Positions 16,237-56,876 of a stretch of 64,000 bases of DNA are shown here, in pieces. The stretch lies in the IMG/VR virus record IMGVR_UViG_3300050821_005814, positions 42,806 to 106,805 of that record. One strand, written 5' to 3'. The notes under the pieces were generated by a model that was not told the DNA's origin, ran no database searches, and saw nothing but the letters and a program-made list of their open reading frames with translations. A program made the translations under genes and the position numbers. Position 1 is the stretch's first letter, and the number at the start of each line of letters is the position of its first letter. This DNA comes from a virus.

Positions 16237-16285
16237 CGCTGCGCATAGCTACTAGCTTGCGCAGCCTAATGGGAGAACAGTAATC
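16234..16285 (+). repeat. Outlier hairpin plus AATGGGAGAAC element related to the 47-55 kb array
   Basis: gctgcgca...tgcgcagc stem right after the queC stop, then aatgggagaac and ATG. Confidence 0.5.
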
Positions 16286-16516
16286 ATGGTTGCGAGCGTA
16301 AGCTCAATTGAGGCAGTCGTACGCATAGTGCGAAAGCATGTCTCAGATGAGAAGTTTCAGGTCATCGTGTCTGAGTTGATCGATGTGCCTGGTAATGCAT
16401 CGTTCCGCGAGTCGGTCATGCGCCTCGCCGACCTTGCTAACATTGGGCTTGATGGGCGGCCAACGCATGTGCGGCAGATCCGCAAGCGCGTGCGGCTTGT
16501 GCGGGTGAAGCTATGA
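16286..16516 (+). CDS. Hypothetical protein
   Basis: GGGAG RBS; VPGNASFR. Confidence 0.55.
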   Translation: MVASVSSIEAVVRIVRKHVSDEKFQVIVSELIDVPGNASFRESVMRLADLANIGLDGRPTHVRQIRKRVRLVRVKL

Positions 16517-16842
16517 CCGACACATCTCATGACTTCAGCGGCAAGTACGATGCATGGGAACTGCGCGTGTTCGATAGCGCGACAAGCTTCTCATGCGTCA
16601 CGGTCTATGGCGGTGGTAGACGCGATAGGGCGGTGTTCTCCGATCTGCCCAGCGCCTTTAACGCAGCGCGCGACATGCAGCGCACATGCGTGTATGCAGT
16701 GTCAGGCTTTGGTCACGGCATCTGCCTCGACCGCAAGCTATGGGATGTCTGGTTAGAGCGCTGGAACGAGAACCAACTGAGTAAGAAGATCACGCCGCGG
16801 CCTGTCAAGCGCCGCCGACGCGAGGCACTTGCATCTACCTAA
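16513..16842 (+). CDS. Hypothetical protein
   Basis: ATGA overlap with the previous gene. Confidence 0.55.
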   Translation: MTDTSHDFSGKYDAWELRVFDSATSFSCVTVYGGGRRDRAVFSDLPSAFNAARDMQRTCVYAVSGFGHGICLDRKLWDVWLERWNENQLSKKITPRPVKRRRREALAST

Positions 16843-22521: not shown

Positions 22522-22658
22522 AATGACGCGCATTGCAACTGGACTAGCGATAGCAGCAGCTATCGCTAGTATTTTTATGGGGATCCGGTTCATCAGCAAT
22601 AGCTGTGCGATGGGCGACCTCAATAGCGCTTATTCTCACTCTACGCAGGAGCGCAAAG

Positions 22659-25232
22659 ATGGCGCTACCACTCAACGGTAGTCTATTTGAGGACATTCCA
22701 TTACCAACGACCATCCCAAAGACGCGTCGCTCAGGTGGCGGCGTAGCACGCGCGAAGCGCCAGCTTAGCCCAACTGAACGAGGATGCGATCACTGCCCCC
22801 TGCGCGAAACGTGGCCCCGCCTCACATCCCCACGCATGCCTGCATGCGGGAACACAGACGACCCCGACATCTTAGTGCTTGGCGAGGGGCCGGGCGAGGA
22901 AGAGGATGCAGAGGGAGAAGTGTTCATAGGCAAGAGCGGCAAGCTCCTGCGCCAATTTATCCCTGGTAGGTTTCGCGACCGCTTAGCATTCCAAAATGCT
23001 GTGCGTTGCCGCCCAGACGACAATCAAACGCCTGACGCTGCCGAGCTACATGCATGCAGCATTCACGTCGACGCTGACATAAAGCAGCTAGGCGTTGGTT
23101 ATATCCTCGGCGTTGGAGGTGTTCCGCTCTCCCGCTTCGTGCGCGGCAAGACAGCATCCATCCTTGCGATCCACGGCGTGCGCTTCCCCGTCGAGATCAA
23201 CGGTGAGACGTTATGGTACTACCCTGTGATGCACCCCTCGTTTGTCATGCGTATGGGCGATAGCAACGAAGGGCGGGGTGAAGGTCCTGCGATGCCTGTG
23301 TTCCGCGCTGACATGAAGCGCTTCTTTGCGGAAGTCGACTCATGGCCGCGTCCAGTCATCACGCCTATGAGTCCAAAGGATGTGCTGCTACCGCGGACGC
23401 GCGATGAGGCCGAGGCGCTGCTCGCTAAGATGCATGCTCCGGTCGGTCTTGATCTTGAAACGTCATCGCCGCATCCAGACCGCGTACCAAAGCCCTATAT
23501 GATCGGCGCCAAACTCGTATCAGCAGCAATTAGTGACGGGAAGACAACCTTCGCGTTCGCAGTTGACGGTAACGAATGGGGACTGGACTTCCTGCTACAA
23601 ATTGCAGAGGAGCACGAATGGATCGCGCAGAATGCCAGCTATGAGCTAGCCTGGCTGATCTACATGTCGCAGACAATGCGGCGCAATCGTCCGCTCAAAC
23701 GATGCCAAGATACCATGGCGCTTGCGCGCATTTACCATCAGCGCGAAACTCTCCTGTCGCTCGCTGCGATCTCGCGCATACATCTCGGCGTTGATGTCAA
23801 ACAGATCATGGAGATCAACACAACGCGTCTTGATGCCTACCCAATCGAGGAGGTTTTGCAGTACAATGGGTTGGATGCACTAGCAACAGCCCTCATCCAT
23901 CGCAAACTGCATAAGCGCGTCGACCCCATGCTGTACGAGCAGATCATGGGCCGCACATACTCTGTCGTTGACATGGAGCTTGCAGGCCTGCCTGTGTCGA
24001 TTGAGGTAGCTGAGAAGCTAGCGGTGAAATGGAAAGCTAAAGCAGATGAGGCTGAAGAGGCTGCTAAGAAGCTGCATGAGGTACGCGCTTATGAGGCCGC
24101 TGCGCAGGTAGCATTCTCCATCAGCAAGCCAGCGCAGGTCGGTGAAGCGCTTGTGCTGCACGGCAAGATCAACCTGCCGAAGACCGAGAAAGGGAAGCAG
24201 TACAACACGAAGGATGAGATCCTCAATGCGGAGTGCCCCGATCATCCATTAGCGAAAGCAGTGCTGAGTTGGCGTGAAGCAACGAAGGTGCGTTCGACCT
24301 ATACGCTGTGTGTGATCGAGGTGCCAACCATCTACAAGGATGGCATGCTGCATCCCGGTTACAACACAATGCTCGTGTCGACCTTCCGCTTGTCGTCAGA
24401 CGACCCCAACATTCAGAACTGGCCGAAGCGCAGCGCTGCGACGCGTGAGGTACGCAGCATGATTGAGGTGCCAGAAGGTTACGTTCTCGTCCCAATGGAC
24501 CAGGGGCAGATTCAGGTACGCATTATCGCAATGGCGTCTGGCGACAAGAAGCTGATCAAGAATCTCGTTGAGGGGCATGACACGCACACAGACTGGCTGA
24601 ACAACACGATCGACATCTATCCCGACTACATAGACCGCCTCGCGCAGAAGGTCGGCGAGAAGGACGAGAAGAAGATCCGTAAGTACGGCCGCAATATCAT
24701 CAAGACAGACTTCGTCTTCTACAGTCTGTTCGGCGGGGGATACAAAGGCATCGCGCGCACAACAGGCATCCCTGAGCGCCTATCAAGGGAACTGCAAGGC
24801 GAGTTCTTCCTCGAGTTCAAAGGTGTGAAGGACTGGCAGAATAGGCAGCGCAAGCAATACGCGGACACAGGCTCGATCACCGGACTGTCTGGTGAAACGC
24901 GCCATGCAATCTTGTGGGGCAATGAGCCGCTTAACACGCCGATCCAAATGGGCGAAGCGCAGATAGTCCTTGAAGCGCAAGCTGAGTTGGCGACGAAGGC
25001 GCGTGAGACCGGCGACAAGCACTACCTACCGCGCATCAGCGTGCATGATGACCTGACCTTCATACTACCCGATGACAACCGGCTCATGGGGTATATTGAG
25101 GAGATAGCTGAGGTCATGCTGAAGGTGCGCTACGACTGGCAAATATGCCCCTTGAGCTTGGAGGTTCAGCTTGGCACCAACTGGGCGGACCTAACTGAGG
25201 TCCATACGTTCACGGGGGACTATATGAGATGA
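22659..25232 (+). CDS. polA: Family A DNA polymerase with N-terminal family-4 uracil-DNA-glycosylase-like domain and 3'-5' exonuclease
   Basis: CDHCPL, LGEGPG..ED..G..FIGKSG, NAVRCRP, HPSF (UDG); LDLET, YNGLD (Exo); RLSS.DPNIQN, DQGQIQVR, RxxxK, VHDD (Pol). Confidence 0.95.
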   Translation: MALPLNGSLFEDIPLPTTIPKTRRSGGGVARAKRQLSPTERGCDHCPLRETWPRLTSPRMPACGNTDDPDILVLGEGPGEEEDAEGEVFIGKSGKLLRQFIPGRFRDRLAFQNAVRCRPDDNQTPDAAELHACSIHVDADIKQLGVGYILGVGGVPLSRFVRGKTASILAIHGVRFPVEINGETLWYYPVMHPSFVMRMGDSNEGRGEGPAMPVFRADMKRFFAEVDSWPRPVITPMSPKDVLLPRTRDEAEALLAKMHAPVGLDLETSSPHPDRVPKPYMIGAKLVSAAISDGKTTFAFAVDGNEWGLDFLLQIAEEHEWIAQNASYELAWLIYMSQTMRRNRPLKRCQDTMALARIYHQRETLLSLAAISRIHLGVDVKQIMEINTTRLDAYPIEEVLQYNGLDALATALIHRKLHKRVDPMLYEQIMGRTYSVVDMELAGLPVSIEVAEKLAVKWKAKADEAEEAAKKLHEVRAYEAAAQVAFSISKPAQVGEALVLHGKINLPKTEKGKQYNTKDEILNAECPDHPLAKAVLSWREATKVRSTYTLCVIEVPTIYKDGMLHPGYNTMLVSTFRLSSDDPNIQNWPKRSAATREVRSMIEVPEGYVLVPMDQGQIQVRIIAMASGDKKLIKNLVEGHDTHTDWLNNTIDIYPDYIDRLAQKVGEKDEKKIRKYGRNIIKTDFVFYSLFGGGYKGIARTTGIPERLSRELQGEFFLEFKGVKDWQNRQRKQYADTGSITGLSGETRHAILWGNEPLNTPIQMGEAQIVLEAQAELATKARETGDKHYLPRISVHDDLTFILPDDNRLMGYIEEIAEVMLKVRYDWQICPLSLEVQLGTNWADLTEVHTFTGDYMR

Positions 25233-44133: not shown

Positions 44134-44503
44134 CTGGCTCTATCGTTGCTACCACTGTGATCAAGTCTTCAAACGCGAGGCAGCAGCCATCCACTTCGGC
44201 ATGCATGAGCTTGACGCGCCTGCATGCAAGCTTGCTGCTGATCTGCCTGGCCTCATAGAGCTACTGCGCAGTAAGGATGCAGAGCTTGCGCAAATGCGGC
44301 GGGAGGACAGTCCAACGCATCGACAGTTCTATGAGCTAGGCTCCCAGTACACGCGCGATGTGACTGCTGCGCAGGAACAAGGTTACAACAAAGCGCTGCG
44401 CGATCTCGAGAACGGCGACCTTGAGAAAGCGCATGCAGCGCGCGTGCTCCCAGGCATCATCAAGGCGCTGACCAGCAATGCCGATCTCCAAGAAAGCGAT
44501 TGA
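44117..44503 (+). CDS. Hypothetical Zn-finger/coiled-coil protein
   Basis: RCYHC..F....AA.HFG...PAC. Confidence 0.55.
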   Translation: MTEKANWLYRCYHCDQVFKREAAAIHFGMHELDAPACKLAADLPGLIELLRSKDAELAQMRREDSPTHRQFYELGSQYTRDVTAAQEQGYNKALRDLENGDLEKAHAARVLPGIIKALTSNADLQESD

Positions 44504-46157
44504 GGCGTTCCTAACGAAGCCGCTGCCTCATCTGCCCAAATTCAAAGGCGCGGACGAGGCAGCGCTTATGCGCCTGATCTACGACTCGACAGGACAACCC
44601 TACGCACCAATCACAACCCCCCGCAAGCATCAGCTTGATGGCGTTGCATTTGCGCTGTATCAGCGCCGCGCTGTGCTGCAATACGACCCTCGGTTGGGCA
44701 AGACAAAGATGGCGCTCGACTGGGCTATGCACCTGCGCAAAGCCAATCTCTGGCGGGCAGGCAAGAAGGGGCTTGTCATCGCGCATTCGCCTGTCGGGTT
44801 GTCAGTATGGAAGCATGAGATCGCGAAGCACTCCAATCTATCAGCATGCTATGTGCAGAACGATGTGCAAGAGTTCATCGACGCGCTAGCAACGGATGTC
44901 GACCTCATCGTGCTACCTTGGTCTGGCTTGCAGGCAATCTTCTCCGAGAAACGCCTAGCGCAGCGGGGACGACGCGCGGGGAAGCCTAAACTTTACCCCT
45001 TCTATGCAGCGCTGCACATTGCGGCGGAGGAGTTCGGGCTCGTCATTGCGGACGAGATCCACATGTGCAACAACCATATGTCGCTGCGTTTCAAGATCGC
45101 TGCCAAGATCATTGAGGGGTGCCGCTTTCGCTTGGGACTGACTGGCACACCAATCGGCCGCAACAAGCTTGCGATATGGCCGTCCAGCTATCTCCTAGAT
45201 GAAGGAGCAGCGCTCAGCGCAAGCTACCCATTTTTCGAGGCTGCTTTCAGCGCGCGCAAGAAGAACTGGTTCGGGCGGCACAAAGGGCTGTTCAAAAACG
45301 AGAAGACTGGCGTTGAGACCTGGGCCAACTACGACTACGTGTTTGACAATGACAAGCTACCGCTCCTGCAGGCGAAGCTTGCCACCCTAGCGATCAGCTA
45401 CAAGCTGAAGGAGGTACGCGCTGTTGATGTGCGGCCTGATGTCATCGAGCTGACCATGTCGCTTGAACAGGCGGAGGCGTACAACGAGGTCGTGCAGCGT
45501 GCACGCATGATTCACAGCGGAGATGTGCATGAGATTCAGAACTCGTTTGTGCGCTTGCGGCAGATCTCGTCGGGGTTCATACCCTTCACGGACAGCGATG
45601 GTAAGCAGCATATGCGGCAGTTCACGCACCCGTCGAAGGTTGAGTGGCTGTCGGACTTGCTCGAGAAGATAGACCCTGACTTAGCGCTCATCATCTTTCA
45701 TGAGTTCACGGAGTCAGGGGACCGCATATGCGGACTGCTCGAGGCTGCTAAGATCAAGCATGCATGGTTCTACGGCGGCACAAAGGACAAGGACGCGATT
45801 GGCAAGTTTCAGCGCGGCGACATCAACGTGCTTGTCGCTAACACGGCGAAAGGCGGCATGTCAATTGACTTACATCGCGCTGACTACATGTTGTTTTATG
45901 AGAGTCCCGTCAGTCCCATCACACGCACGCAAGCCGAGGCGCGTCCGCTAGCTGAGCAGCGCGGCAAGCGTCCTCTGATTATTGACGACCTCGTCTGTTC
46001 ACCAATCGAACGCAGAGTGCGTGAGCTCGTACGTGAAGGTAAGAACGCGCTCAAAGCATTGACGAGTGCACCGCGCAGTTGGGAGATGCTTGACCTGCAT
46101 GCATTAGGCAAAAAGAAACCCCCAGGCCGTAAAGCCCAGGGGCGCTTGCCGCTTTAG
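44478..46157 (+). CDS. SNF2-like SF2 helicase
   Basis: RLGKT, ADEIH, LTGTP, RLRQI, QAEAR. Confidence 0.9.
   Translation: MPISKKAIEAFLTKPLPHLPKFKGADEAALMRLIYDSTGQPYAPITTPRKHQLDGVAFALYQRRAVLQYDPRLGKTKMALDWAMHLRKANLWRAGKKGLVIAHSPVGLSVWKHEIAKHSNLSACYVQNDVQEFIDALATDVDLIVLPWSGLQAIFSEKRLAQRGRRAGKPKLYPFYAALHIAAEEFGLVIADEIHMCNNHMSLRFKIAAKIIEGCRFRLGLTGTPIGRNKLAIWPSSYLLDEGAALSASYPFFEAAFSARKKNWFGRHKGLFKNEKTGVETWANYDYVFDNDKLPLLQAKLATLAISYKLKEVRAVDVRPDVIELTMSLEQAEAYNEVVQRARMIHSGDVHEIQNSFVRLRQISSGFIPFTDSDGKQHMRQFTHPSKVEWLSDLLEKIDPDLALIIFHEFTESGDRICGLLEAAKIKHAWFYGGTKDKDAIGKFQRGDINVLVANTAKGGMSIDLHRADYMLFYESPVSPITRTQAEARPLAEQRGKRPLIIDDLVCSPIERRVRELVREGKNALKALTSAPRSWEMLDLHALGKKKPPGRKAQGRLPL
46111..46147 (-). 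terminator. Rho-independent terminator for the minus-strand gene 46154-46360
   Basis: ccccaggc/gcccagggg stem; aaaagaaa on + gives a U-tract on -. Confidence 0.6.
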
Positions 46158-46360
46158 CCGTAGATCGCTACCGCTATCTCGTCCGTGAGCAACATCTCTT
46201 CTTGCTGCGCAGAAGCGGGTACGCGCTGCTGAAGCAATGCTAGGACTGCGTTTGCATTGTTGATGTTGCCAACGTCGACCATTGCCTCATATGCAGCAAT
46301 CAACGCGTAGCGTGGCTGATCGTTCTCGTCGCGCGCAGGCGCGAACTCTGCAACTTGCAT
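46154..46360 (-). CDS. Hypothetical protein, divergent from the array
   Basis: AGGAG RBS before MQVAEF. Confidence 0.6.
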   Translation of the reverse strand: MQVAEFAPARDENDQPRYALIAAYEAMVDVGNINNANAVLALLQQRVPASAQQEEMLLTDEIAVAIYG

Positions 46361-46620
46361 AGCTGATTCTCCTGACAAAGAGCGGGGACACGACATTGCG
46401 TCCAACAGCATGCTAGCAGTCCCGCAGCAGCGTAGCGTTGCTCATTGCGCATCGCTGAAAAATTGGTCTGTAATAGCTGCCCTAATAGGCATATGCACGG
46501 GCATATGCAGGGAAATTGCGCTGCGCAAAACTGTGGGGGGTTTGGCTAGTTTTAGCTAGCGCAACGCTGCGAGCCAAAAGTGCGCCGTTCCGCCTAGGCG
46601 GAAGCGCAATGACCCCCTAC

Positions 46621-46633
46621 TAACCCCTTGAAA
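46621..46633 (+). promoter_or_regulatory. IHF-binding-site-like motif
   Basis: TAACCCCTTGAAA vs consensus YAANNNNTTGATW (1 mismatch), in an AT-richer non-coding stretch. Confidence 0.35.
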
Positions 46634-47170
46634 TCGTAGTGGGTTTTTATCTAGTAGTCAGATCTGCGCGCAGATAGTATATTTATGTCAATCCCCTAGC
46701 TAAATAACAGCCTAAAGAGGGGGAATGAGGCAGCGCTAGCTGCTCGCGGGGTCCGACCCCCCGCCCCCATTCCCAGCGGTCAACGGACTAGCTAAGCGCT
46801 GCTTAGCTGCTCCCCACCAGGACCCCTTAGCGCAGCGCAGCGCGGGATTGGGGAATGGGTGACGGAGTACCTGACGAGGACCTCTTGCTTCGGTGCGCTG
46901 ACGTCTGCACCAGCAACGGGACCAGCCGGACCGCCGTGACAGACATGAGTCGGCAGCGTGCAGTATCCTAGTAGCTTCTAGGCAACGAAATGCATGCGAC
47001 GGTGCGCATAGCGCAGCGCGAGTCCCCTTAGCTAGCAGCAATGCAGCGGGAGTGGGGTAGCGCTAAGCGCGGGACTACGCGCCTTAGCATAGCAGGACGG
47101 ACCACACGCTCGGTTTGGGACTCATGCTGGGTGCAAACATAAAGTTCTCTCTCATTGTTCTACTGATGAA

Positions 47171-47244
47171 AGCGTCAATGCTTTTGCATATGCCTCTAGC
47201 GCCGCAGCGCGGGATTAGGCGATATATGCAATTGCATTGACGCT
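47171..47244 (+). other. Long imperfect hairpin in the array leader
   Basis: agcgtcaatgc/gcattgacgct, ttgcatat/atatgcaa, gcct/aggc. Confidence 0.7.
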
Positions 47245-47304
47245 ATGCAGCTATAGCACCTTACGCTGCACTGATGATTCCTGGTGCACAATGGGAGAAC
47301 AAAT

Positions 47305-47646
47305 ATGCTCAAAGCGAAGCGCGTGACGATCGAACGTGACCATCGCGCTAACGGCTACATTGCTGGCTGGAACGGCCGCGTCCCAGGCGACGATCACCCG
47401 GAGTATTTGGAGGGACACAAGCAAGGCGTTGCAGCAGCGAAAAGAGCAAATGACGTCGAAACGTTCGCTGCGCGTACGAGAAAGCATCATAAGGACGTGC
47501 GTGCTGCTGCTAAAGCGCTACGCGACGCTGCGCCTGACCTTGCTAATGCTTTACGACTCGCAAGGGAATTGGCATGCACAGCTGGCGGCTTGCGGCACGA
47601 CCAAATTGACTCATTGCTCGCGCATATGATTCTATACGGCTACTAA
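47305..47646 (+). CDS. Array gene, hypothetical
   Basis: CAATGGGAGAAC-aaat-ATG. Confidence 0.7.
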   Translation: MLKAKRVTIERDHRANGYIAGWNGRVPGDDHPEYLEGHKQGVAAAKRANDVETFAARTRKHHKDVRAAAKALRDAAPDLANALRLARELACTAGGLRHDQIDSLLAHMILYGY

Positions 47647-47715
47647 CGCGTACAGATGCAGCGCATTGCGCTGCATTTGCCTGCGCTAGTGCAGGATACA
47701 ATGGGAGAACAAAAT

Positions 47716-48240
47716 ATGGCTTACAAAGCACGGAAGCTTACGCGCGCTGAGATGACTGCAAAGGAGAACGCAGCGCTTGCAGAGGCGGGTATGGCTATTG
47801 ACGCTGCGAACAGCAACCCAGACACGACGAACGTTCAACGCTATCAGCTCGCGTCGCGCATCCTTTGGATCCAAGGGGCGCACAAGTATGTGTTCCCTAG
47901 CCAACTGATGCTTAGTGCTGCGCATGCGGACAAAGCGAAGTACCAAGCCGACTTTGACGTATATGCTCATGCCGAGGGCGTCAAGCATGCGCGGTCTTAT
48001 GCGCTGGGCGGTGCAAATAGGTATCTCGAGAAAATGAAGAAGCATGCCGAGCGATTGATCGAAGACCTCAACCGCTATCAAGTGCAGCTCAACGCAGACA
48101 ACAACGATAACGTCGACCGGTCCGATCGCTTCGGCTGGGCGGTCAATGAGATCGAAAACTTCTGCCGCAACGTTGGCTACAGCGAAGCAACGCGCATTTG
48201 CGCTACGCTTGCAAAGGCTTTTGACCGCAAAGACGACTAA
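47716..48240 (+). CDS. Array gene, hypothetical
   Basis: Start after the conserved RBS. Confidence 0.75.
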   Translation: MAYKARKLTRAEMTAKENAALAEAGMAIDAANSNPDTTNVQRYQLASRILWIQGAHKYVFPSQLMLSAAHADKAKYQADFDVYAHAEGVKHARSYALGGANRYLEKMKKHAERLIEDLNRYQVQLNADNNDNVDRSDRFGWAVNEIENFCRNVGYSEATRICATLAKAFDRKDD

Positions 48241-48308
48241 CGCGTATGGATGCAGCGTTCGCTCACGCTGCATTCACCTGCGCTAGTGCAGGCAATGGGA
48301 GAACTCAA

Positions 48309-48539
48309 ATGGTTGAAGTTGAAATGATCGGCCGCGCACTCAAGCTTGGCGACAAGCTGAGCAATGGGGCGGTCGTCATGGCATATCGCGACGTAAGCTT
48401 TGATCGGCGCATAGTGCTCGCGCTGTTCCGTCGCACTGAGTATGTCACGTGGCGGCTTGACTATGACAACAACCCCTGGGGCGGACACTACTTCGAGGGC
48501 GACCTCGTCGCCGCTGCCATGGACTTTCTCAGCCGCTGA
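48309..48539 (+). CDS. Array gene, hypothetical (YVTW...WGGHYF)
   Basis: Start after the conserved RBS. Confidence 0.7.
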   Translation: MVEVEMIGRALKLGDKLSNGAVVMAYRDVSFDRRIVLALFRRTEYVTWRLDYDNNPWGGHYFEGDLVAAAMDFLSR

Positions 48540-48552
48540 AGGAGTATGCGCT

Positions 48553-48828
48553 ATGGTTGGAACACGCTTTGAAATCACGGATCTCGACCTTGGCGAGGCT
48601 GCTTACTTCGAGCTCGCGTGCAAGACGCATATGCAGCGCAGCACGTTCGGCACAAGGGAAGCGCTCGTCGCGCTGATCGCTATTGCGCAAGGTAAGCAAG
48701 TCTCCGACGCCGTCCGCAACGATGCGATCAATGCCGCTAGTGCGGTCATCGTACAAAAAGGTTGCGAGGAGATGGGTGAGGGGTTGTCCTACCTGACGGA
48801 CAACATCGACGTCATAATTTACGGCTGA
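48553..48828 (+). CDS. Array gene, second in its unit, hypothetical
   Basis: AAGGAG RBS; stop forms the start of an element. Confidence 0.65.
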   Translation: MVGTRFEITDLDLGEAAYFELACKTHMQRSTFGTREALVALIAIAQGKQVSDAVRNDAINAASAVIVQKGCEEMGEGLSYLTDNIDVIIYG

Positions 48829-48900
48829 CCCTGATGGATGCAGCATAAGGAGATGCTGCATTTACCTAGGCCAGACCTGGGATACAATGGGAGAACGAAT

Positions 48901-49140
48901 ATGAAGGTAAAGTACACGATCACTGCTGAAGTGATGGTCGACATCATGCCAGACGACGACAACAAGGTGCCGCCAAAAGTGCTTCGCAAAGTGCCATCGC
49001 AACTCAAGCATGAGTTGCGGTACACGCTGCAAGAAGACGATCAGCTGTCCAACAGCTTGCTCGATACACTCGGGCATGTCATTCGACTCAAGGTCAAGCG
49101 ATTGGCCGTCGACCAATCCGGACCATTATGGATCCGCTAA
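48901..49140 (+). CDS. Array gene, hypothetical
   Basis: Start after the conserved RBS. Confidence 0.7.
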   Translation: MKVKYTITAEVMVDIMPDDDNKVPPKVLRKVPSQLKHELRYTLQEDDQLSNSLLDTLGHVIRLKVKRLAVDQSGPLWIR

Positions 49141-49215
49141 GTAACTAGCTTGGATGGAAGCAGCGCCAATGCGCTGCTTCTACCTGCGCTAGTGCAGGGC
49201 AATGGGAGAACGAAT

Positions 49216-49563
49216 ATGAAGATCGATCCGACGACCACGCGCCGCATACTTCGGGTTGGCGATATCGTCATGGTCCGCAGCGCGCATACGAACAAGGTGC
49301 TGAAGACGATGAAAATTGATCGCGTCAGCAAGGCGCAAAAGCGCGTGCATCTCGAAGGTCAGCATGCAGACATTGCGTTTTACTACCAGCAAGGCAGCAT
49401 GCACTACAGGCAAAACCCCGGTTCGGGTTTGGCTGGTAGCTTTCTCAACGACTACTTTTGCATCGATGATGTCAAGTCCGGTCCCGGCTATATCGAAGCC
49501 GAAGGCGATGACGGCTCGAAGCTGTTTATCAACAGCAATGGCGATGTACGCGGTATCTTCTGA
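49216..49563 (+). CDS. Array gene, hypothetical
   Basis: Start after the conserved RBS. Confidence 0.7.
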   Translation: MKIDPTTTRRILRVGDIVMVRSAHTNKVLKTMKIDRVSKAQKRVHLEGQHADIAFYYQQGSMHYRQNPGSGLAGSFLNDYFCIDDVKSGPGYIEAEGDDGSKLFINSNGDVRGIF

Positions 49564-49641
49564 CCCTGATGGATGCAGCGCTCGAAGCGCTGCATCTACC
49601 TAGGCCAGCATGGCGTAGGGTATCACAATGGGAGAACTTAC

Positions 49642-50379
49642 ATGGCACTTAACGACAAGATCCGCAAGCTCATGGCACTGGCGACGCACCCTGGCAGCAA
49701 TGCGCAGGAGGCGGCCGCTGCTGCCGCAATGGCTGCAGAGCTTGCGCTCAAGTACAACATCGACCTCGAAAGCGTCTCGCAGGAGACGACAAAGCAGGCC
49801 AAGGTGTTCATGCGCGGTAACACTGCATTCAAGGTGTCGCCGCGTGACCGGTCCGCTGGCTTTGCCATACAGCATGGTATCGCCAAGCTGTATGGTGTGA
49901 AGCCTGCATACCACTATGACGGCAGTCAAAATCATATGTGGTACATTGGACAGGAGCACAACGTTGCTGTTGCCAATAGCTGGTCGGAATACCTTTGGAA
50001 CGCGTGCCTCAAGGCCAACGTCGAGTACAGCCGGCGGCGCATATACGATAGCGCGAAGGAACGCTATCGCGCGGACCAGACCTTCCGTCTGACCTTCTCG
50101 CGTGAAGTATGCTCGCGTCTCGAAGAGAAGCAGCAGCGCATGAAGGACACTGGCGTATCATCGACTGGCACGGCGCTCGTCGTTGTCAATTGGTATGAGG
50201 CTGAGCGCAAGGAGATCCAAGCTTGGGTCGACAATACTATGAAAATGAAGACGACGACCTCGAAGGCAAAGCGCATTGACTCGGGCGCTGCGCTTGCGGG
50301 GCACGAAGCTGGTCGTCGCGTTGGTCTGCATGACCAGCTCGCCGGCCGGGCGCAACCTACAATGCGCCGCATAGCCTAA
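49642..50379 (+). CDS. DUF2786-domain protein
   Basis: DKIRKLMALA......EAAAA...A..L..KYNID; C-terminal AG..AG..V.L. Confidence 0.8.
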   Translation: MALNDKIRKLMALATHPGSNAQEAAAAAAMAAELALKYNIDLESVSQETTKQAKVFMRGNTAFKVSPRDRSAGFAIQHGIAKLYGVKPAYHYDGSQNHMWYIGQEHNVAVANSWSEYLWNACLKANVEYSRRRIYDSAKERYRADQTFRLTFSREVCSRLEEKQQRMKDTGVSSTGTALVVVNWYEAERKEIQAWVDNTMKMKTTTSKAKRIDSGAALAGHEAGRRVGLHDQLAGRAQPTMRRIA

Positions 50380-50459
50380 CCTGTAGGGAAGCAACGCAGC
50401 GCTCAGCGTTGCTTCTCCCTGGGTTAGTTAGTCCAGGGTAACGCAATGGGAGAACTTAG

Positions 50460-51344
50460 ATGACACTAGAACTTAGAGATCCGCAAGTCCGCGCTGAGCT
50501 GTTCGCAATGCGCTGGGCGAGCGAGTCCGCTGCAAAGCAGTGGCTTCGTCGGCAGGGTGCCAATGCTGAGGCATTGACAACCAACGGGCTGATCGTTGGA
50601 ATGGCGCCTGACAACGGCGTCTGCCTGCAGGAGCAGGTTACTGCTGTGAAAGGGACCATCCCGCAGGCGGCAAAGGCAAAGGAGCGCAGCGCTGCAACGC
50701 GCCGTGCTCTCGAGCTGGACGCTGCGACGGGTAAGGGGAAGGTCGCGGACATCGATGACAAGGTCGCAGCGCATGAGAAAGCGGATGCGGCGGGTGATAT
50801 CGAGGATGCGCGGCCGAAGGTTCCCCAAACACTCGTCGACGGGGACACACCACTCCCTGACACGGAGTCGCTGCTCGCGCGGGACACGTCTGGGCGCGTA
50901 ATGATCAATCGGTCGCATGAGGCGTTCATTCGCCTGCCGACAATGGGACCGAAAGACAAGCTTCGCTCCTGGGCGGCATACTACGCCGCTTACCTGCGCA
51001 CTGTCATTGACGTGTGCGATGTCGAGACAGGCGCATTGATCGAACGCTTCAACGGTCGCGGTGCGACAGTACGTCCGCCATCGACCAGCAAGCCGCGCGT
51101 GTCCATGACCAATGGTACTGGTCGCGGCCGCAGGGCGAGCAGCGCTGCACTGAGTCCCTTGCAACTCAAGTGGATTGAGCTTGCGTCGCGTCCAGATGGC
51201 GCCAAGCGCACCGAGCTCACGTCTGCCAATGAGGGCACTGTCCTCAATTGGAAGGGTGTGCTCGAATCGCTTGGTAAGAAGCGCGGCCTGTCGCTGACGG
51301 TCACAAAGGCGCAGGGTGAGACGCCTGTATACAAGCTAGCCTAA
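50460..51344 (+). CDS. Array gene, hypothetical, possible C-terminal DNA-binding domain
   Basis: 294-aa ORF bounded by two elements. Confidence 0.7.
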   Translation: MTLELRDPQVRAELFAMRWASESAAKQWLRRQGANAEALTTNGLIVGMAPDNGVCLQEQVTAVKGTIPQAAKAKERSAATRRALELDAATGKGKVADIDDKVAAHEKADAAGDIEDARPKVPQTLVDGDTPLPDTESLLARDTSGRVMINRSHEAFIRLPTMGPKDKLRSWAAYYAAYLRTVIDVCDVETGALIERFNGRGATVRPPSTSKPRVSMTNGTGRGRRASSAALSPLQLKWIELASRPDGAKRTELTSANEGTVLNWKGVLESLGKKRGLSLTVTKAQGETPVYKLA

Positions 51345-51420
51345 CCTGTAGGGAAGCAGCATGGTAGCGCATGCTGCTTCTCCCTGGGTTAGACCTGGGA
51401 TGACCAATGGGAGAACGAAT

Positions 51421-51747
51421 ATGGCTAGCAGTTCATATATAGGCGAAGAGTACGCCGATCATGTCGCAGTACCTGCTTGTATCAGGCATGACGAAGAGCT
51501 TTGCTGGCACTATGCAGAGCTCGCCGCAGAGATCTTCTTTCGCGGTACGATGCCTCAGTACGATGATGCTGCGTACTGGCGGTATAGCGCAAGCTGTTAC
51601 TTGCCTGAAAACCAGCCGCAGTACCGCAACAGCATGCCTCCTCCTCCTCCAAGCGAGGATGACGCATTTGACATGACCTACGACGATTGCATCGAGGAAG
51701 CTGAAAAGATTGAGTGCGGCTTTGTCGGCGGCGAGGAGATGGTGTGA
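51421..51747 (+). CDS. Array gene, acidic hypothetical protein
   Basis: Start after the conserved RBS; D/E-rich. Confidence 0.65.
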   Translation: MASSSYIGEEYADHVAVPACIRHDEELCWHYAELAAEIFFRGTMPQYDDAAYWRYSASCYLPENQPQYRNSMPPPPPSEDDAFDMTYDDCIEEAEKIECGFVGGEEMV

Positions 51748-51893
51748 TGTCTGACCACGAAATAGTCGAGATGCTCATGCTACTCGGCAAGATCGTATGG
51801 AGCGTCGCTGGGATCGCTGCCGGTGCCTTTAGCATCTTCGCTAATGGCGTCGTCATTTGGCGCATCATGACCGGCAAACGTCTCTGGACCTGA
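51747..51893 (+). CDS. Small membrane protein (48 aa)
   Basis: Manual translation MSDHEIVEMLMLLGKIVWSVAGIAAGAFSIFANGVVIWRIMTGKRLWT; its TGA starts an element. Confidence 0.6.
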   Translation: MSDHEIVEMLMLLGKIVWSVAGIAAGAFSIFANGVVIWRIMTGKRLWT

Positions 51894-51966
51894 CCCTGAT
51901 GGATGCAGCGCAAGCGCGCTGCATCTACCTAGGCCAGTCGCTTAGGACAACAATGGGAGAACGAAT

Positions 51967-52302
51967 ATGGTACCGACTATCAGACTAATGGTCATGCGCA
52001 GCGGTACGCGCTACTTCATCTACAACCGAGGCATGACATTCGTCATGCAGCGCGCGGATGGGTCGCAGGCTGCGCTCGGCCTGATCACGCATGAACCCGT
52101 CATGTTCATGTTCGCGCTGGAAGACGCGCTGCTGTCCAAGGACAACCCCAGCGGCATGGCGATGAAAGCAGCAAAAGCGTTCCTCGGCGAGGACTGCAAG
52201 ATCAACCTTATCCACACTGTCACGAAGCCGATCGAGGATAAGGATCCCGCGATTGAGCTCGAGGCGGCGGGGATCAACCTGACGGAGGCGCATGTGTCAT
52301 GA
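51967..52302 (+). CDS. Array gene, hypothetical
   Basis: Start after the conserved RBS. Confidence 0.7.
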   Translation: MVPTIRLMVMRSGTRYFIYNRGMTFVMQRADGSQAALGLITHEPVMFMFALEDALLSKDNPSGMAMKAAKAFLGEDCKINLIHTVTKPIEDKDPAIELEAAGINLTEAHVS

Positions 52303-52685
52303 AGCGCTATAGCATTCTAATGGTATGCGGCTTGGTTGTTGCGCTTGCTTTTGCGTACGTGCACGGTGCTTTAGCTGATGGATTGCTCACAGCATTCATC
52401 GGCGCAGTATGCGGCATGTACGTTGGCAGTTGGGCATTCCAGCGCTGGGGCGACCCCAAGCTCATGCGGGACTGGGATCGTGTCAGCAACCGCAATTGGT
52501 CGCTTGCGCAAGCAAGTCAAGCAATGTTCGACGCAGGTATCGGCGAGCCTTATGCTGATGCTGAGCACGATATGATCGACCTGCTGCGGGGACACGTGAC
52601 CCTGCCCGAGTTGATCGAGGTGATGCGTATATTACACAACGCATGGGGTCACCGCTTCCTGCATGATCTCGTGACGGGCGACTAA
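52299..52685 (+). CDS. Two-TM membrane protein
   Basis: Two N-terminal hydrophobic helices. Confidence 0.65.
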   Translation: MKRYSILMVCGLVVALAFAYVHGALADGLLTAFIGAVCGMYVGSWAFQRWGDPKLMRDWDRVSNRNWSLAQASQAMFDAGIGEPYADAEHDMIDLLRGHVTLPELIEVMRILHNAWGHRFLHDLVTGD

Positions 52686-52754
52686 CGCGTACGGTTGCAG
52701 CGCTTGTCAGCGCTGCACTCGCCTGCGCTAGTGCAGGACAATGGGAGAACAAAT

Positions 52755-53420
52755 ATGGTACGCATACTATCGGTTGACTGGGACTTCTTCGTCGAGGAAG
52801 ACCCCATGCTTGACTATGGGCATCGCGAAGTAAGCCTGTTCCTCGAGATGATCTGGCATACGCGTCGCCAAGGGTACCTATGGGACCCAGCGACGCAAAC
52901 GGCCGAACCCATTCGACGTGACCTGACAAAGCTCCTGCCGTTCCGCGGCGACCCAGCGTTTCTGCAAGTGGCAGCTATGCGCTGGCACAACTACGACGTT
53001 GCGGTCGCTGAGTCACACCTGACAATCTTACAGATGATTGGGCAGCGGACCGATCTCGAGATCATCAACGTCGACGCGCATCACGACATTCACTATGGTA
53101 CCTTGCCCAAAGATGATGTCGTGCATTGCGGCAATTGGGGCGCTCACCTCATGCAGCAAAATCGCGTGCGCTCCTGGACGCAGATCTACCCGGAGTGGCG
53201 TCAGAAGTACAAGGAGACGTTTCCCCGGACATGGGCAAAGAAGCACTGCCCCAAAGTGGCCGTAAAGTTTGGCGAGCAGCGCATTCCATGGCGCGATGTC
53301 GACGCTGTCTTCATCTGCCGCTCAGGGTGCTGGACGCCGCCTGAGTACGATGTGCGCTTCAATGCGTTCACTGAGGCGATGGGTTCTAGCTACAAACTAC
53401 CTGAACGCGCGATCGAGTGA
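52755..53420 (+). CDS. Arginase/deacetylase-fold metal-binding protein (UPF0489-like)
   Basis: ILSVDWDFF, AESH, INVDAHHD, HCGNW, FICRSGCWTPP. Confidence 0.65.
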   Translation: MVRILSVDWDFFVEEDPMLDYGHREVSLFLEMIWHTRRQGYLWDPATQTAEPIRRDLTKLLPFRGDPAFLQVAAMRWHNYDVAVAESHLTILQMIGQRTDLEIINVDAHHDIHYGTLPKDDVVHCGNWGAHLMQQNRVRSWTQIYPEWRQKYKETFPRTWAKKHCPKVAVKFGEQRIPWRDVDAVFICRSGCWTPPEYDVRFNAFTEAMGSSYKLPERAIE

Positions 53421-53507
53421 CCTGCGAGGGAAGCAGCATGCATGCATGCATGCTGCTTCTCCCTGGGCCATAGTGGTCACCAGGGTTAGCAATGGGAGAA
53501 CTTAGTT

Positions 53508-54575
53508 ATGTCACACGAACTAGCTCAGACAGCCGATGGGCGTGATGCAATGGCATATGTCGGGCGTGCGCCTTGGCATAAGCTCGGGCAGAAGCTTGAG
53601 GCTGGTGCGAGCAAGGAGGAGTGGTGCAAAGCGGCAGGCTTCGACTTCCAGTATCTCGTGGACACAGTGCGCTTCGAACACAATGGAGCGCAGCACGAGA
53701 TGCCAAGTCGCCTCGTCATCTACCGCGGCGATACCTTGGCGCCGATGTCGATCGTGAGCAATCAGTTCAAGATCGTTCAGCCAAGTGACGTCATGGCCTA
53801 CTTCGACTCACTCGCGACACGTGCAGGGTTTCAGCTCGAAACGGCTGGGCTGCTGTTCGGCGGCAAGCAACTCTGGGCGCTTGCCAACATCGGCGACGAA
53901 AAGGCGGTCGCATCGGCAAAGGATCGGATCAAGGGGCGGTTGCTCATGGCAACAAGCGTTGACCTGTCACTGCCGACAACGCTCAAGTTCCTTGCGGAGC
54001 GCGTTGTCTGTCACAACACGCTATCGTATGGGATGAGAGAAGGCGGCGGGACGACAGTGCGTGTCCGTCATCGCACGACCTTCCGTCCGGATGAGGTCAA
54101 CGAGCAGCTAGGCATCACAATGCAGAGCGGCTTCGATGAAGCGATGGAAGACTTCCGCCGCTTGGCTGACACGCCGATGAACGACATCGAGATGATCGAG
54201 GCGACGATTGCGCTGCATGATCCGTCCGCGATGGACAAGGATCCGGACGAGCTCATGCAGCTACTTCACAACCACAAGCCCATCCAGCGGATCGGCGAGT
54301 TGTCAATCGGCGAGGAGGCTATCGGGTCGGAGTTACCGGGAGCTGCTGGTACGGCGTGGGGATGGTTGAACGCTGTCACGCAATACTATGATCACGAGCG
54401 GAACGCGCGGTCGGATGACTTCCGCCTGTCGCGCACTTGGTTTGGCGATGGCGATCGCATGAAGTCGCGTGCGTTCGAGATTGCTATGATGACAGCGAAT
54501 GGCGATGAGTCATACAAGCATGACTTCCAAGCCAGCGGCGGCGCATTGCTTGACGCAGTGCTCGCAGCTACCTAA
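53508..54575 (+). CDS. DUF932 (TIGR03299-like phage/plasmid) protein
   Basis: PWHKLG, IVS..FK.VQP, ETAG.L.GGK..WALA, RVVCHNTL, GTAWG.LNAVT.Y.DH. Confidence 0.9.
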   Translation: MSHELAQTADGRDAMAYVGRAPWHKLGQKLEAGASKEEWCKAAGFDFQYLVDTVRFEHNGAQHEMPSRLVIYRGDTLAPMSIVSNQFKIVQPSDVMAYFDSLATRAGFQLETAGLLFGGKQLWALANIGDEKAVASAKDRIKGRLLMATSVDLSLPTTLKFLAERVVCHNTLSYGMREGGGTTVRVRHRTTFRPDEVNEQLGITMQSGFDEAMEDFRRLADTPMNDIEMIEATIALHDPSAMDKDPDELMQLLHNHKPIQRIGELSIGEEAIGSELPGAAGTAWGWLNAVTQYYDHERNARSDDFRLSRTWFGDGDRMKSRAFEIAMMTANGDESYKHDFQASGGALLDAVLAAT

Positions 54576-54641
54576 CGCGTATGGATGCAGCGTTTCGCGC
54601 TGCATCTACCTGCGCTAGGGCAGGATAATGGGAGAACTCAA

Positions 54642-54947
54642 ATGGCTAATCTTACGAAGCAAGAAGCGAGCGTGCTTGCTGGGATGTTTGCTGTGACCAA
54701 CATGGGTCAACGGTGCCCAAGCAAGGAGCTCATACTGCGCGCAAAGCGCAGCGGGCTGAACGATGCCAACTCAATTGCGTGCATGTTCGCCGTGGAGTAC
54801 ATGGAAACCGTTGCTGACGAGAAAGCTTGGACGCAAGAGACGCGCTATTGGCAGCGGGAGCTCAGCAAAATGACCATGGAGAAAGTCGCTGAGATATGGC
54901 CAGACAATGCGAAAGCATATGCGGAGGCTGTAGCCGCGAACGCCTGA
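54642..54947 (+). CDS. Array gene, hypothetical
   Basis: Start after the conserved RBS. Confidence 0.7.
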   Translation: MANLTKQEASVLAGMFAVTNMGQRCPSKELILRAKRSGLNDANSIACMFAVEYMETVADEKAWTQETRYWQRELSKMTMEKVAEIWPDNAKAYAEAVAANA

Positions 54948-55030
54948 CCTGCGAGGGAAGCAGCATGCATGCATGCTGCTTCTCCCTGGGCCAGATGGTT
55001 TACCAGGGGCACAACAATGGGAGAACGAAT

Positions 55031-55261
55031 ATGAGTACGCGAGTAGAAATCGTACTGGGGATCAACCTGACACTCGCATTGCAGCGGGTAGATCATCCGA
55101 TCCGCGGTGCGCTGCCTGTCATCGCACTCTACACCTACAGTGCTAACGGCAACATCGAACAGCGGATCGATCTCGTAGGCGCGCGTAGCTTGCGGGATAC
55201 GCTTGATGCCTTGATCAAGGACATCGAGCACGATCAAAAGCTTGAGATGGAGCGCGTATAA
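55031..55261 (+). CDS. Array gene, hypothetical
   Basis: Start after the conserved RBS. Confidence 0.65.
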   Translation: MSTRVEIVLGINLTLALQRVDHPIRGALPVIALYTYSANGNIEQRIDLVGARSLRDTLDALIKDIEHDQKLEMERV

Positions 55262-55441
55262 ATGGGAAAAATTCGTATGCGCACCAGCACAGCAGTCAAT
55301 TTGGTCAAGCGCGGTATCCGTGACGGTCTCACGAACGACGAGATCCGCGCGCTGCCGCAATTCAAGCGGCTTGAGGCCGATTGGAAGTACCGCGTCAACG
55401 ACAAGCAAATTGATCGCTTGCGCGGCCTCAACGTCGACTGA
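55262..55441 (+). CDS. Small basic protein (59 aa)
   Basis: Manual translation MGKIRMRTSTAVNLVKRGIRDG...; its TGA starts an element. Confidence 0.55.
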   Translation: MGKIRMRTSTAVNLVKRGIRDGLTNDEIRALPQFKRLEADWKYRVNDKQIDRLRGLNVD

Positions 55442-55517
55442 CCTTGATGGAAGCAGCGGCAATGCCGCTGCTTCTACCTCGGCCAGAGTGGACGAGGGTT
55501 ACAATGGGAGAACTCAA

Positions 55518-55706
55518 ATGCACTATGCAATTCGTTACTGGCGCGGCGATGCGAAGCACCCCACAGCAAAGGGGTCGAATGTCATCTCAGCGGAGAATCA
55601 GGAGGCAGCGGAGGCGCTTGCTGAAAAGATGATCCGCGGGATGGAGCGCTTCACGCGCCTGGCTGAAGGAACGATCAGCTACATCGTCGCGCCGGTCAGC
55701 GGCTGA
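55518..55706 (+). CDS. Array gene, hypothetical
   Basis: Start after the conserved RBS. Confidence 0.65.
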   Translation: MHYAIRYWRGDAKHPTAKGSNVISAENQEAAEALAEKMIRGMERFTRLAEGTISYIVAPVSG

Positions 55707-55719
55707 GGGGGATAGAGCA

Positions 55720-56049
55720 ATGTCCGAGGCAGTCGCACTGCGTAAGCAGGACCAGCGCCCCGACTACATCAAGCAGGTCTTCTTTGGTAAGGAGGACCTG
55801 CGCGTCGGGGACCAGCTCGCATACTGGGGCGTCCTTGACCCTGGGTCGCGCTGGCGCATCACGCAGATCACATCCTACCGCATGAAGACAACGAAGTCTG
55901 GTAAGCTTCGCTACGACCGGCAGCATCCGCGGGTAGCGCGCTTCCTGCGCGATGACCTGCATCTCGTCAACATCGCGAACGGAGATACGCACACGGTTAC
56001 ATTCGCCTATGTGCGCTACTCCGCGATATGGTGGGCGGTACCTAAGTAG
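55720..56049 (+). CDS. Last array gene, hypothetical
   Basis: GAGGGGG RBS; followed by a terminator. Confidence 0.65.
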   Translation: MSEAVALRKQDQRPDYIKQVFFGKEDLRVGDQLAYWGVLDPGSRWRITQITSYRMKTTKSGKLRYDRQHPRVARFLRDDLHLVNIANGDTHTVTFAYVRYSAIWWAVPK

Positions 56050-56050
56050 A

Positions 56051-56083
56051 GGGAGCTGAGTGTTTGCACCCAGCTCCTTTTCT
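56051..56083 (+). terminator. Rho-independent terminator closing the array
   Basis: ggagctg...cagctcc plus ttttct at the convergent junction. Confidence 0.8.
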
Positions 56084-56084
56084 G

Positions 56085-56876
56085 TCACGCAGCTAACGCG
56101 CTCATCGAGCGCTGCAACATCGCCATATCGACATCTGCAGGATCCAGCCCCGACGGGCCGAAGAACGCCGGATCGAGCACCATGTAAATCTCGTCGACGC
56201 TTTGCGTAGCGAATGACTCATCATACCGCCACATCCCATCCCATGTCTCGACATCGAAGTAGGTCTTCCCCGCGACCTCCTCACAATCGAGCACGAGGAA
56301 CTCGTGTCCGCCGATGTAGGGGTTGCCTGCGACCCACATAAAGTTTGAGTCGACATTCGCTTGCGTCAACTGCGCGCCGACCATAAGAGGTCCAAGCGAT
56401 AGCGCTTGCTTGACGGCATCCAGGTTCTTGTGATTGACACGCGTCGCGCCTTTCAGGAAGTTGCGCTGACCTGCAATCACGAGGCCGGTCTTGGTCCAGT
56501 ACTCAAGGAGACCTCCTGGACCAGCGACGACCGTCCCATTGTCTGTCGGGTTGCTACCATCCTGCTGCGTCTGCGCTGGATCATACCCTGTGATCGCGGA
56601 GTACTCGCCAACAGCCTCGTCATCTGTCGGATCGATGTCAATGCTTGTCGTGTAGGCGAGCGCTGTCTGCACGTAGTGGAATGCTGTGCAGATCACGCAG
56701 TTGCCGATGATGTTGTTGCGCAGGATGGGGATACCCTTCGCAGGCGTATGCGCGCGCCAGTTCGTGCTCTTGCCTGGCGCAAAGCTTACAGGCAGCAGGC
56801 GCTCCAATCGCGCAATGCGGCGATCATCGACCGCATCCTGCTTCCCAAGCATGCGTGTTACATTGGACTGACTCAT
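56085..56876 (-). CDS. Papain-like (C1-type) cysteine peptidase
   Basis: NNIIGNCV catalytic Cys, Y.AITGYDP...TDNG, GGHEF, ETW. Confidence 0.7.
   Translation of the reverse strand: MSQSNVTRMLGKQDAVDDRRIARLERLLPVSFAPGKSTNWRAHTPAKGIPILRNNIIGNCVICTAFHYVQTALAYTTSIDIDPTDDEAVGEYSAITGYDPAQTQQDGSNPTDNGTVVAGPGGLLEYWTKTGLVIAGQRNFLKGATRVNHKNLDAVKQALSLGPLMVGAQLTQANVDSNFMWVAGNPYIGGHEFLVLDCEEVAGKTYFDVETWDGMWRYDESFATQSVDEIYMVLDPAFFGPSGLDPADVDMAMLQRSMSALAA

Follow-up and report, generated by a model that had tools for sequence, protein, structure and literature searches.

The sequence analysed here is the final 64 kb (64,000 nucleotides, hereafter the window) of the IMG/VR virus record IMGVR_UViG_3300050821_005814, which measures 106.8 kb and is rated complete. 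Between an SNF2 gene (44478-46157) and a convergent block, the window carries an array of 19 small co-directional genes (47305-56049). Within this array lie 13 intercistronic elements (47641-55520) that share one common anatomy, each spanning the stop codon of the upstream gene to the ATG of the next. No paralogy was detected among the 19 genes, none of which resembles another, and family matches were obtained for only two of them (DUF2786/DUF7168 and DUF932).

Each element is built on a lower stem of eight positions; in 12 of the 13 copies the stop codon takes up positions 2-4 of the 5' arm. A 2x2 internal loop, TA or GA opposite CC, lies directly below the upper stem in all 13 copies and is surmounted by a GC-rich upper hairpin of 12-13 base pairs (bp) in ten of them (range 9-15). 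A second hairpin, H2, can be drawn at the 3' side; it has 5-9 bp and a loop of 3-10 nucleotides (nt), and it ends 1-7 nt before a ribosome-binding word, CAATGGGAGAAC, which is followed by 4-6 nt and the ATG (one of the 13 words begins with TAAT instead of CAAT). H2 was formed in 13/13 copies with free energies of -8.1 to -13.4 kcal/mol when folded alone, and in every copy it was better than shuffled 3' arms (per-copy fractions 0.00-0.14). The nucleotides of its 5' arm and loop also make up the 3' arm of the lower stem, and the two helices are therefore mutually exclusive. These results bear out the first-pass annotation, made from the sequence alone, which had described an alternative 3' hairpin in every copy and its incompatibility with the outer stem. 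That annotation also had the hairpin starting at the loop CC. The first paired base is indeed the first C in ten copies, and it lies one base earlier in the other three (C_50445 and both D elements).

By sequence, the elements fall into five families, A (four copies and a mosaic, Ax), B (three), C (two), D (two) and E (one). The lower stems of B and E have only five of their eight positions paired. All copies are on the + strand. The first, A_47700 (47641-47718), has its TAA (47644-47646) in the lower stem, an upper hairpin of 12 bp, the loop CC at 47680, H2 at 47680-47695, the 12-mer at 47699-47710 and the ATG at 47716. It is followed by A_48294 (48235-48311; TAA 48238-48240, CC 48277, H2 48277-48292, ATG 48309) and by B_48886 (48823-48903; TGA 48826-48828, CC 48865, ATG 48901), whose H2 (48865-48881) includes a U-G pair. 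The mosaic Ax_49201 (49144-49218; CC 49183, ATG 49216) combines an upper stem of E/C type with an A-type H2 (49183-49198); its TAA (49138-49140) sits 6 nt 5' of the stem, and this is the sole copy with the stop codon outside. In B_49627 (49558-49644; TGA 49561-49563, CC 49599, ATG 49642), H2 (49599-49619) has eight pairs around one G-G mismatch and the two-hairpin fold is ahead by about 6 kcal/mol. C_50445 (50374-50462; TAA 50377-50379, CC 50418, H2 50417-50438, ATG 50460) has a continuous lower stem of 8 bp with two G-U pairs. In the other C element, C_51406 (51339-51423; TAA 51342-51344, CC 51383, ATG 51421), H2 (51383-51399) pairs on the sense strand only because it contains a U-G and a G-U pair.

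B_51952 (51888-51969) has TGA at 51891-51893, CC at 51928, H2 at 51928-51946 and ATG at 51967. A_52740 (52680-52757; TAA 52683-52685, CC 52722, H2 52722-52737, ATG 52755) has an upper stem of 9 bp plus 3 bp across a bulge, and D_53491 (53415-53510; TGA 53418-53420, CC 53462, H2 53461-53485, ATG 53508) one of 15 bp. The word that starts with TAAT belongs to A_54627 (54570-54644; TAA 54573-54575, CC 54609, H2 54609-54624, ATG 54642). The last two copies are D_55016 (54942-55033; TGA 54945-54947, CC 54985, H2 54984-55008, ATG 55031) and E_55503 (55436-55520; TGA 55439-55441, CC 55477, H2 55477-55497, ATG 55518).

The relative stability of the two folds was evaluated by free and constrained folding. 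In the minimum free energy (MFE) fold the long stem is formed in 7/13 copies and two hairpins are formed in 6/13; z-scores for whole elements range from -2.1 to -5.5. Under constrained folding of the 13 copies, the lower stem contributes -6.5 to -11.9 kcal/mol and H2 -8.7 to -13.2 kcal/mol, the upper hairpin being by far the strongest part (-15 to -25 kcal/mol). The two folds are at most 2 kcal/mol apart in eight copies, and the two-hairpin state is ahead by 3.7-6.7 kcal/mol in four (49627, 53491, 55016 and 55503). Strand preference was considered as well: with G-U pairs taken into account, H2 and the two-hairpin fold are more stable on the sense strand in 12/13 copies, whereas in families B, D and E the antisense strand would give the better-paired lower stem. 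Cruciforms at the DNA level were rejected, as G-U pairs favour the sense strand for H2, an argument to which the B, D and E lower stems run counter.

Both helices also leave their mark on the alignment of the 13 sequences. Pairing is possible in 92% of the cells, against 27-47% when the partners are slid by 1-3 columns, and both-sided changes are found at four of the eight lower-stem pairs and five of the 12 upper-stem pairs. At lower-stem pair 5-55 the switch between A-U and G-C exactly tracks the use of TAA or TGA, and pair 8-52 switches between C-G and G-C. The nucleotide of column 52 covaries with its partner in the lower stem and with its partner in H2. One base with two covarying partners is the expected signature of a real two-state element. 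Once five relatives were added, six of the eight lower-stem pairs were doubly changed, in an alignment that was fitted to the covariance model and is biased towards it.

The search for relatives started from metagenomic SNF2 homologues of 40-52% identity, through which 57 IMG/VR loci were reached and then scanned with a covariance model of the 13 copies. Two of the 57, L097 and L115, contain elements, and the TA/CC loop occurs there too. A degenerate pattern (stop, upper stem, CCT) gave 10 sites; they are spread over eight viral contigs, that of L097 among them, and the model detected further copies around most of these sites. Whole-record scans of five contigs yielded 4-14 matches each, clustered in co-directional arrays. 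The total comes to about 30 further members on at least nine other IMG/VR phage contigs. Applied to 596 Gb of bacterial genomes, the same pattern returned 22 sites, none of which passed the covariance model; a match to the pattern thus does not by itself make a true element, and the family looks confined to phages. Of 30 non-redundant relatives, 26 have a TGA or TAA at the same model position that closes a frame of at least 40 codons, and 26 have an H2 at the CC with a free energy of -4.4 kcal/mol or lower. Across 35 distinct sequences, position CC+3 of H2 is occupied by GC, AU, CG and UA pairs and CC+4 by GC, CG and UA. When 39 elements were treated uniformly, the two folds lay within 2 kcal/mol in 21, the long form was favoured in 13 and the two-hairpin form in five. 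Both helices are conserved; the exact energy balance is not. A count of repeated 11-mers in the 57 loci returned tandem coding repeats only. Rfam 15 gave no match at gathering thresholds over the window and, at E <= 1 over 46100-56200, a single chance-level microRNA match outside the elements. The elements are an undescribed structured RNA family of more than 40 members in uncultivated phages.

How the array is transcribed bears on what the elements could do. Seven sigma-70-like promoters were found against 5.9 expected, one of which, a weak 9-of-12 match (48861-48888), touches an element. The terminator scan gave no intrinsic terminator at the elements, where neither hairpin is followed by a T run, and the phage motif GGGTATATTG is absent from the elements and from the array. 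Because the elements carry no promoter, terminator or GGGTATATTG, the array is probably one transcript. A presumed promoter region precedes it, a non-coding leader of about 900 nt (46411-47288, + strand) with a sigma-70-like site at 46655-46683 whose spacer is an operator-like palindrome. The leader (46411-47305) also holds several repeated GC-rich words, for example GCAGCGCGGGATT. GGGTATATTG itself, a candidate -10 word of phage promoters, has exactly four copies, at 10542 (- strand) and at 11961, 17706 and 25089 (+ strand); copies with one mismatch lie at 3031 (- strand), 14926 and 16869.

Two mutually exclusive helices beside a stable GC hairpin could also be read as transcription terminators or attenuators, with H2 and the lower stem as terminator and anti-terminator. 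We consider this exceedingly improbable: the hairpins are followed by TTTGCC, TCTACC, TCTCCC or ATACAAT and by no T run, and the scan is negative at the elements. A genuine hairpin with a T run is present only at the end of the block, where a terminator-like GC hairpin (56051-56087, + strand) closes the co-directional genes and faces the convergent gene. Phage promoters of T7 or N4 type were likewise rejected, conservation being restricted to -4 to +8 around the word and H2 loops varying from 3 to 10 nt.

We favour the interpretation that each element is an intercistronic module for mRNA processing and stability within one long accessory-gene transcript, and give it a probability of roughly 45%. 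A host double-strand-specific endonuclease, most likely RNase III, would bind the long form and cut it a single time in the 3' side of the internal loop, in the manner of the T7 early sites. This would leave the upstream mRNA with the upper hairpin at its end, where it would block 3' exonucleases. The freed 3' arm of the lower stem would snap into H2, and the base of H2 would be the new 5' end. The downstream mRNA would start base-paired, as a poor substrate for 5'-end-dependent decay, and continue with the standard ribosome-binding word. The outcome would be a series of short, insulated and uniformly translated mRNAs from one promoter. We infer every enzymatic step of this model by analogy. 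E. coli RNase III substrates measure about two helical turns, and internal loops limit the enzyme to one phosphodiester, the product being a protective 3' hairpin (PMC1540722); 5'-end-dependent decay requires a single-stranded 5' end (PMC3997798). With eight lower positions, the 2x2 loop and an upper stem of mostly 12-13 bp, the long form spans about two helical turns. Its internal loop sits where that of the T7 sites does. This geometry is consistent with an RNase III substrate by rules that are those of the E. coli enzyme, which also call for proximal and distal boxes free of inhibitory base pairs (PMC1540722).

The first ribosome-binding site of the array (47289-47307, + strand) suggests to which of the two cistrons the large hairpin belongs. 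It has the same 12-mer, 4 nt and the ATG at 47305, with neither an upstream open reading frame (ORF) nor a large hairpin, and the short hairpin that immediately precedes it folds no better than shuffled sequences. That this first gene has the word and lacks the large hairpin is in keeping with a large hairpin that forms part of the end of an upstream cistron.

A close parallel is offered by the early sites of phage T7, whose positions we take to be those of Dunn and Studier 1983, the T7 record used being without such annotation. Folded with the same program at these presumed positions, the R0.5, R1.1 and R1.3 regions have upper stems of 10-13 bp, and R0.5 and R1.3 also show a lower stem and an interruption below an upper stem of 12-13 bp. 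In R0.5 (T7 record 1430-1498, locus L167), the TGA of gene 0.4 is inside the lower stem, as in the elements of the present phage. The likeness extends to the general arrangement: R0.3, R0.5, R1, R1.1 and R1.3 are similar intercistronic hairpins in one early transcript, as the elements probably are in one accessory transcript, and in both an upper stem of about 12 bp, a loop and a lower stem add up to about two turns. In the T7 sites, one cut within the loop leaves a protective 3' hairpin (PMC1540722), and the corresponding cut in the elements would follow by analogy. The two differ in that there is no sequence similarity between them and in that the loop is small and symmetric here (2x2, TA/CC) and larger and asymmetric in T7. 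Moreover, the T7 sites folded here show no second hairpin overlapping the lower stem, and the present elements are followed by an invariant 12-nt word. By this comparison, the T7 early RNase III sites appear to be a close functional model, down to the stop codon.

Several observations weigh against processing at the elements. Judged by energy, the lower stem of the 13 copies is not better than shuffled 5' flanks. In B and E it consists of three short blocks with A-C mismatches and may be a poor double-strand substrate. In the strongly two-hairpin copies (four or five, by 3.4-6.7 kcal/mol, depending on the method), the long form is predicted to be only transient. Terminating ribosomes would keep melting the proposed substrate, given the stop codon inside the stem. 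The invariance of the 12-mer is without explanation in the processing model, and a family search found no RNase III gene in the phage.

The position of the stop codon could instead mean that the element senses translation with no obligatory cleavage. A terminating ribosome would free the 3' arm for H2, and the flip would report upstream translation and then alter the fate of the junction, through access of a nuclease or Rho or through re-use of the ribosome at the nearby word. The stop codon is at the same stem positions in 12/13 copies here and in most relatives, the two folds are often close in energy, and both helices covary. In addition, in the long form a single helix has the stop codon at one end and the ribosome-binding word at the other, which brings the two close in space. 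We nevertheless hold this to be unlikely. The predicted cost of opening the Shine-Dalgarno (SD) sequence is already low (0.75-3.4 kcal/mol in 12/13 copies), and masking the stop region does not improve access; it raises the cost in the C copies, in Ax and in one D copy. The energy balance is not conserved either, differing by more than 2 kcal/mol in one direction or the other in 18 of the 39 elements. Finally, T7 R0.5 also carries a stop codon in its lower stem, so this feature does not distinguish the elements from an ordinary RNase III site. Translational coupling by a ribosome on the stop codon had been proposed in the first-pass annotation. This proposal gained no backing from the masking analysis, which gave no consistent drop in SD-opening cost, and in these predictions SD access is independent of the fold.

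That annotation had also pointed to TTCTCCC as an exact complement of the SD word GGGAGAA. The match is perfect only in the four C and D copies, and there the upper stem sequesters it; the elements of the relatives show no evident complement of this kind. An anti-SD role of TTCTCCC as a general feature of the elements was therefore rejected.

Cleavage and sensing could also be combined in a co-translational sensor, in which the terminating ribosome flips the fold and the choice between cut and intact RNA (or ribosome reloading) depends on upstream translation. This seems to us rather unlikely; if true, a stop-codon-anchored RNA switch would stand at every gene boundary, conserved across a group of soil or freshwater phages.

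The strength of the upper hairpin raises the question of whether any cut within the element is needed. Like repetitive extragenic palindromic (REP) sequences, the elements might be uncut stabilisers or insulators. The upper hairpin would then halt 3' exonucleases on RNA that had been cut at other places, H2 would only shield the ribosome-binding word from long-range pairing, and its overlap with the lower stem would serve no function of its own. In agreement with this view, nearly all copies have an SD that is predicted to be open, and related phages (L121; L097:16705) have many intercistronic GC hairpins with neither H2 nor the conserved word. Examples are seen at L121:16242-16330 and 16500-16590 and at L097:16705-16790, where GC hairpins just after stop codons are accompanied by GGAGA-type ribosome-binding sites and H2 is lacking. 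This layout may be the ancestral state. As an account of the 13 elements, however, uncut hairpins leave unexplained the covariation of the lower stem, including the switch linked to TAA and TGA, as well as the TA/CC loop in distant relatives and the start of H2 at the CC, and we regard the idea as rather unlikely.

The order of the families along the array, A A B Ax B C C B A D A D E, shows that they are interleaved, and the elements are mosaic, upper-stem type and lower-stem/H2 type assorting independently. Such a pattern would be expected if the elements were recombination boundaries of gene cassettes, in the manner of the promoter early stem-loop (PeSL) elements of T4-type phages, with repeats that persist through homologous exchange and RNA folds of secondary importance. 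In accordance with this, the 19 genes, which are not paralogous, have as their boundaries homologous elements that reach exactly from stop to start, and most of the genes are of unknown function, as in hyperplastic regions. The resemblance to PeSLs extends to repeated composite motifs flanking unrelated small ORFs in a plastic genome region, likely an aid to gene shuffling. PeSLs consist of a sigma-70 promoter and a terminator stem-loop (PMC2839356, PMC4122927), whereas the elements have neither a promoter consensus nor a T run, their conserved parts being RNA helices and a ribosome-binding word. Furthermore, exchange needs identity and not compensatory pairs, and the stems have diverged here with pairing kept; nor was a close relative found that would reveal exchange at an element. 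Recombination is in our opinion an improbable function of the elements, and it is compatible with the processing model as an account of their origin.

Repeated intergenic palindromes that affect mRNA ends are also known as Correia elements or nemis in Neisseria and as REP sequences and bacterial interspersed mosaic elements (BIME) in enterobacteria, and an effect of this kind may be supposed here. Correia hairpins are reported to be RNase III substrates. Both groups are dispersed genome-wide in both orientations, and some are mobile. In contrast, the present elements occur in co-directional arrays only, reach precisely from stop to start and, in the collections searched, are restricted to phages. 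A dispersed mobile element was rejected for the window, where all copies have one orientation and form one block. Integron attC-like sites were rejected too: no GTTRRRY core was seen by eye (core and integrase were not searched for), and the elements include a ribosome-binding site.

The remaining component is the ribosome-binding word. As AATGGGAGAAC, it has 15 copies in the whole 106.8-kb record, all on the + strand and 4-7 nt 5' of an ATG. Fourteen are within the array, and 13 of these end a structured spacer (anchors 47700 to 55503). The 12-mer has remained invariant while the adjoining stems diverged into five families, and pairing with the 16S rRNA tail (anti-SD) accounts for GGGAG at most. 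Scanning IMG/VR for the 12-mer followed by ATG gave 85 single, chance-level matches and no second array. The related phages L158, L159 and L166 (e.g. L159:4081-4167) have their own stereotyped pre-start word, ACAGAGGACACC, instead of CAATGGGAGAAC. As each related phage has its own word, the word co-evolves with the phage and not with the universal rRNA tail. It is possible that a protein or a small RNA reads the 12-mer. The leader has an GTTCTCTCTCATTG-like stretch at 47142-47158 whose RNA ranks second (-13.7 kcal/mol) as a complement to CAAUGGGAGAAC when the whole + strand of the 64-kb window is compared; this may be an anti-ribosome-binding site acting in cis or in trans, or chance.

On this basis the elements might be operators for a phage-encoded RNA-binding protein or small RNA that reads the 12-mer with H2 as platform and switches the cassettes jointly. 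The constancy of CAATGGGAGAAC (one TAAT apart) beside diverged stems, its incomplete coverage by anti-SD pairing, the leader complement and the phage-specific words all speak for an operator. On the other hand, no RNA-binding protein was identified, the leader complement may be chance, with odds of about 3% for a top-two site in a 900-nt leader, and the large hairpin and the stop codon are left out of account. We judge this reading highly improbable.

Outside the array, an orphan copy of the word (16228-16288, + strand) is preceded by a hairpin that ends 2 nt before TAATGGGAGAAC (16267-16278), with 7 nt to the ATG at 16286. The hairpin is strong (MFE over 40 nt -19, against -8 +/- 2.6 for shuffles). 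This copy is far from the array, and the 76-amino-acid ORF downstream of it has no known function. Within the array, a degenerate word, AATGGGAAAAA (55259-55279), shares nucleotides with the TAA that closes gene 55031-55261, with 5 nt between the word and the ATG at 55277; it looks like a decayed element without hairpins.

A comparable word has been described in Cluster K mycobacteriophages. Their start-associated sequence (SAS) is a 13-bp word, GGGATAGGAGCCC, located 3-8 bp before start codons; its function is unknown and a role in translation is suspected (PMC3203893). Just upstream of roughly half of these sequences, imperfect inverted repeats of 17 bp, separated by a variable spacer, form the extended SAS (ESAS) (PMC3203893). 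As with SAS, an asymmetric conserved word (12 nt here) stands in one orientation before the starts of some non-structural genes. The word here is CAATGGGAGAAC and not GGGATAGGAGCCC, which makes the two analogous and of different families; hosts and phage types are unrelated. Descriptions of SAS give no long hairpin anchored on a stop codon and no competing fold (PMC3203893). Compared with the ESAS repeat, H2 (5-9 bp, loop of 3-10 nt, 1-7 nt before the word) is shorter and overlaps a further helix. By analogy with the systems compared here, the element is most likely an intercistronic signal of RNase III type, into which an alternative 5' hairpin is built and which carries a fixed ribosome-binding word.

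The remainder of the window places the array in its genomic context. It encodes a family A DNA polymerase with a uracil-DNA glycosylase domain, a ribonucleotide reductase, a gp32-like protein, helicases of DnaB and SNF2 type, a large terminase and a baseplate J protein. This gene set indicates a virulent tailed phage, probably a myovirus. In the polymerase (22605-25232), the uracil-DNA glycosylase superfamily domain is N-terminal (residues 82-218) and precedes the 3'-5' exonuclease and polymerase domains. No close relative was found among isolated phages, polymerase identity being at most 30%; megablast of the array region against isolated phages gave no match, and the SNF2 helicase search found no close relative either.

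Both the structure of the elements and the conservation of that structure are solid, and neither has been described before. As a structured RNA family in which two competing helices covary, the elements could be curated for Rfam; they also mark accessory-gene arrays in uncultivated phage genomes, which should aid annotation. If the processing model is true, this group of phages would express many unrelated accessory genes evenly from one promoter by means of one standard spacer, which would close one message with a protective hairpin, give the following message a base-paired 5' end and bring along a fixed ribosome-binding site. Engineered operons use synthetic insulator parts (RNase III or Csy4 sites, RiboJ), of which such a spacer would be the natural equivalent. 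A stop codon within the very helix to be cut would also make it a clean system for asking whether translation termination controls RNA processing.

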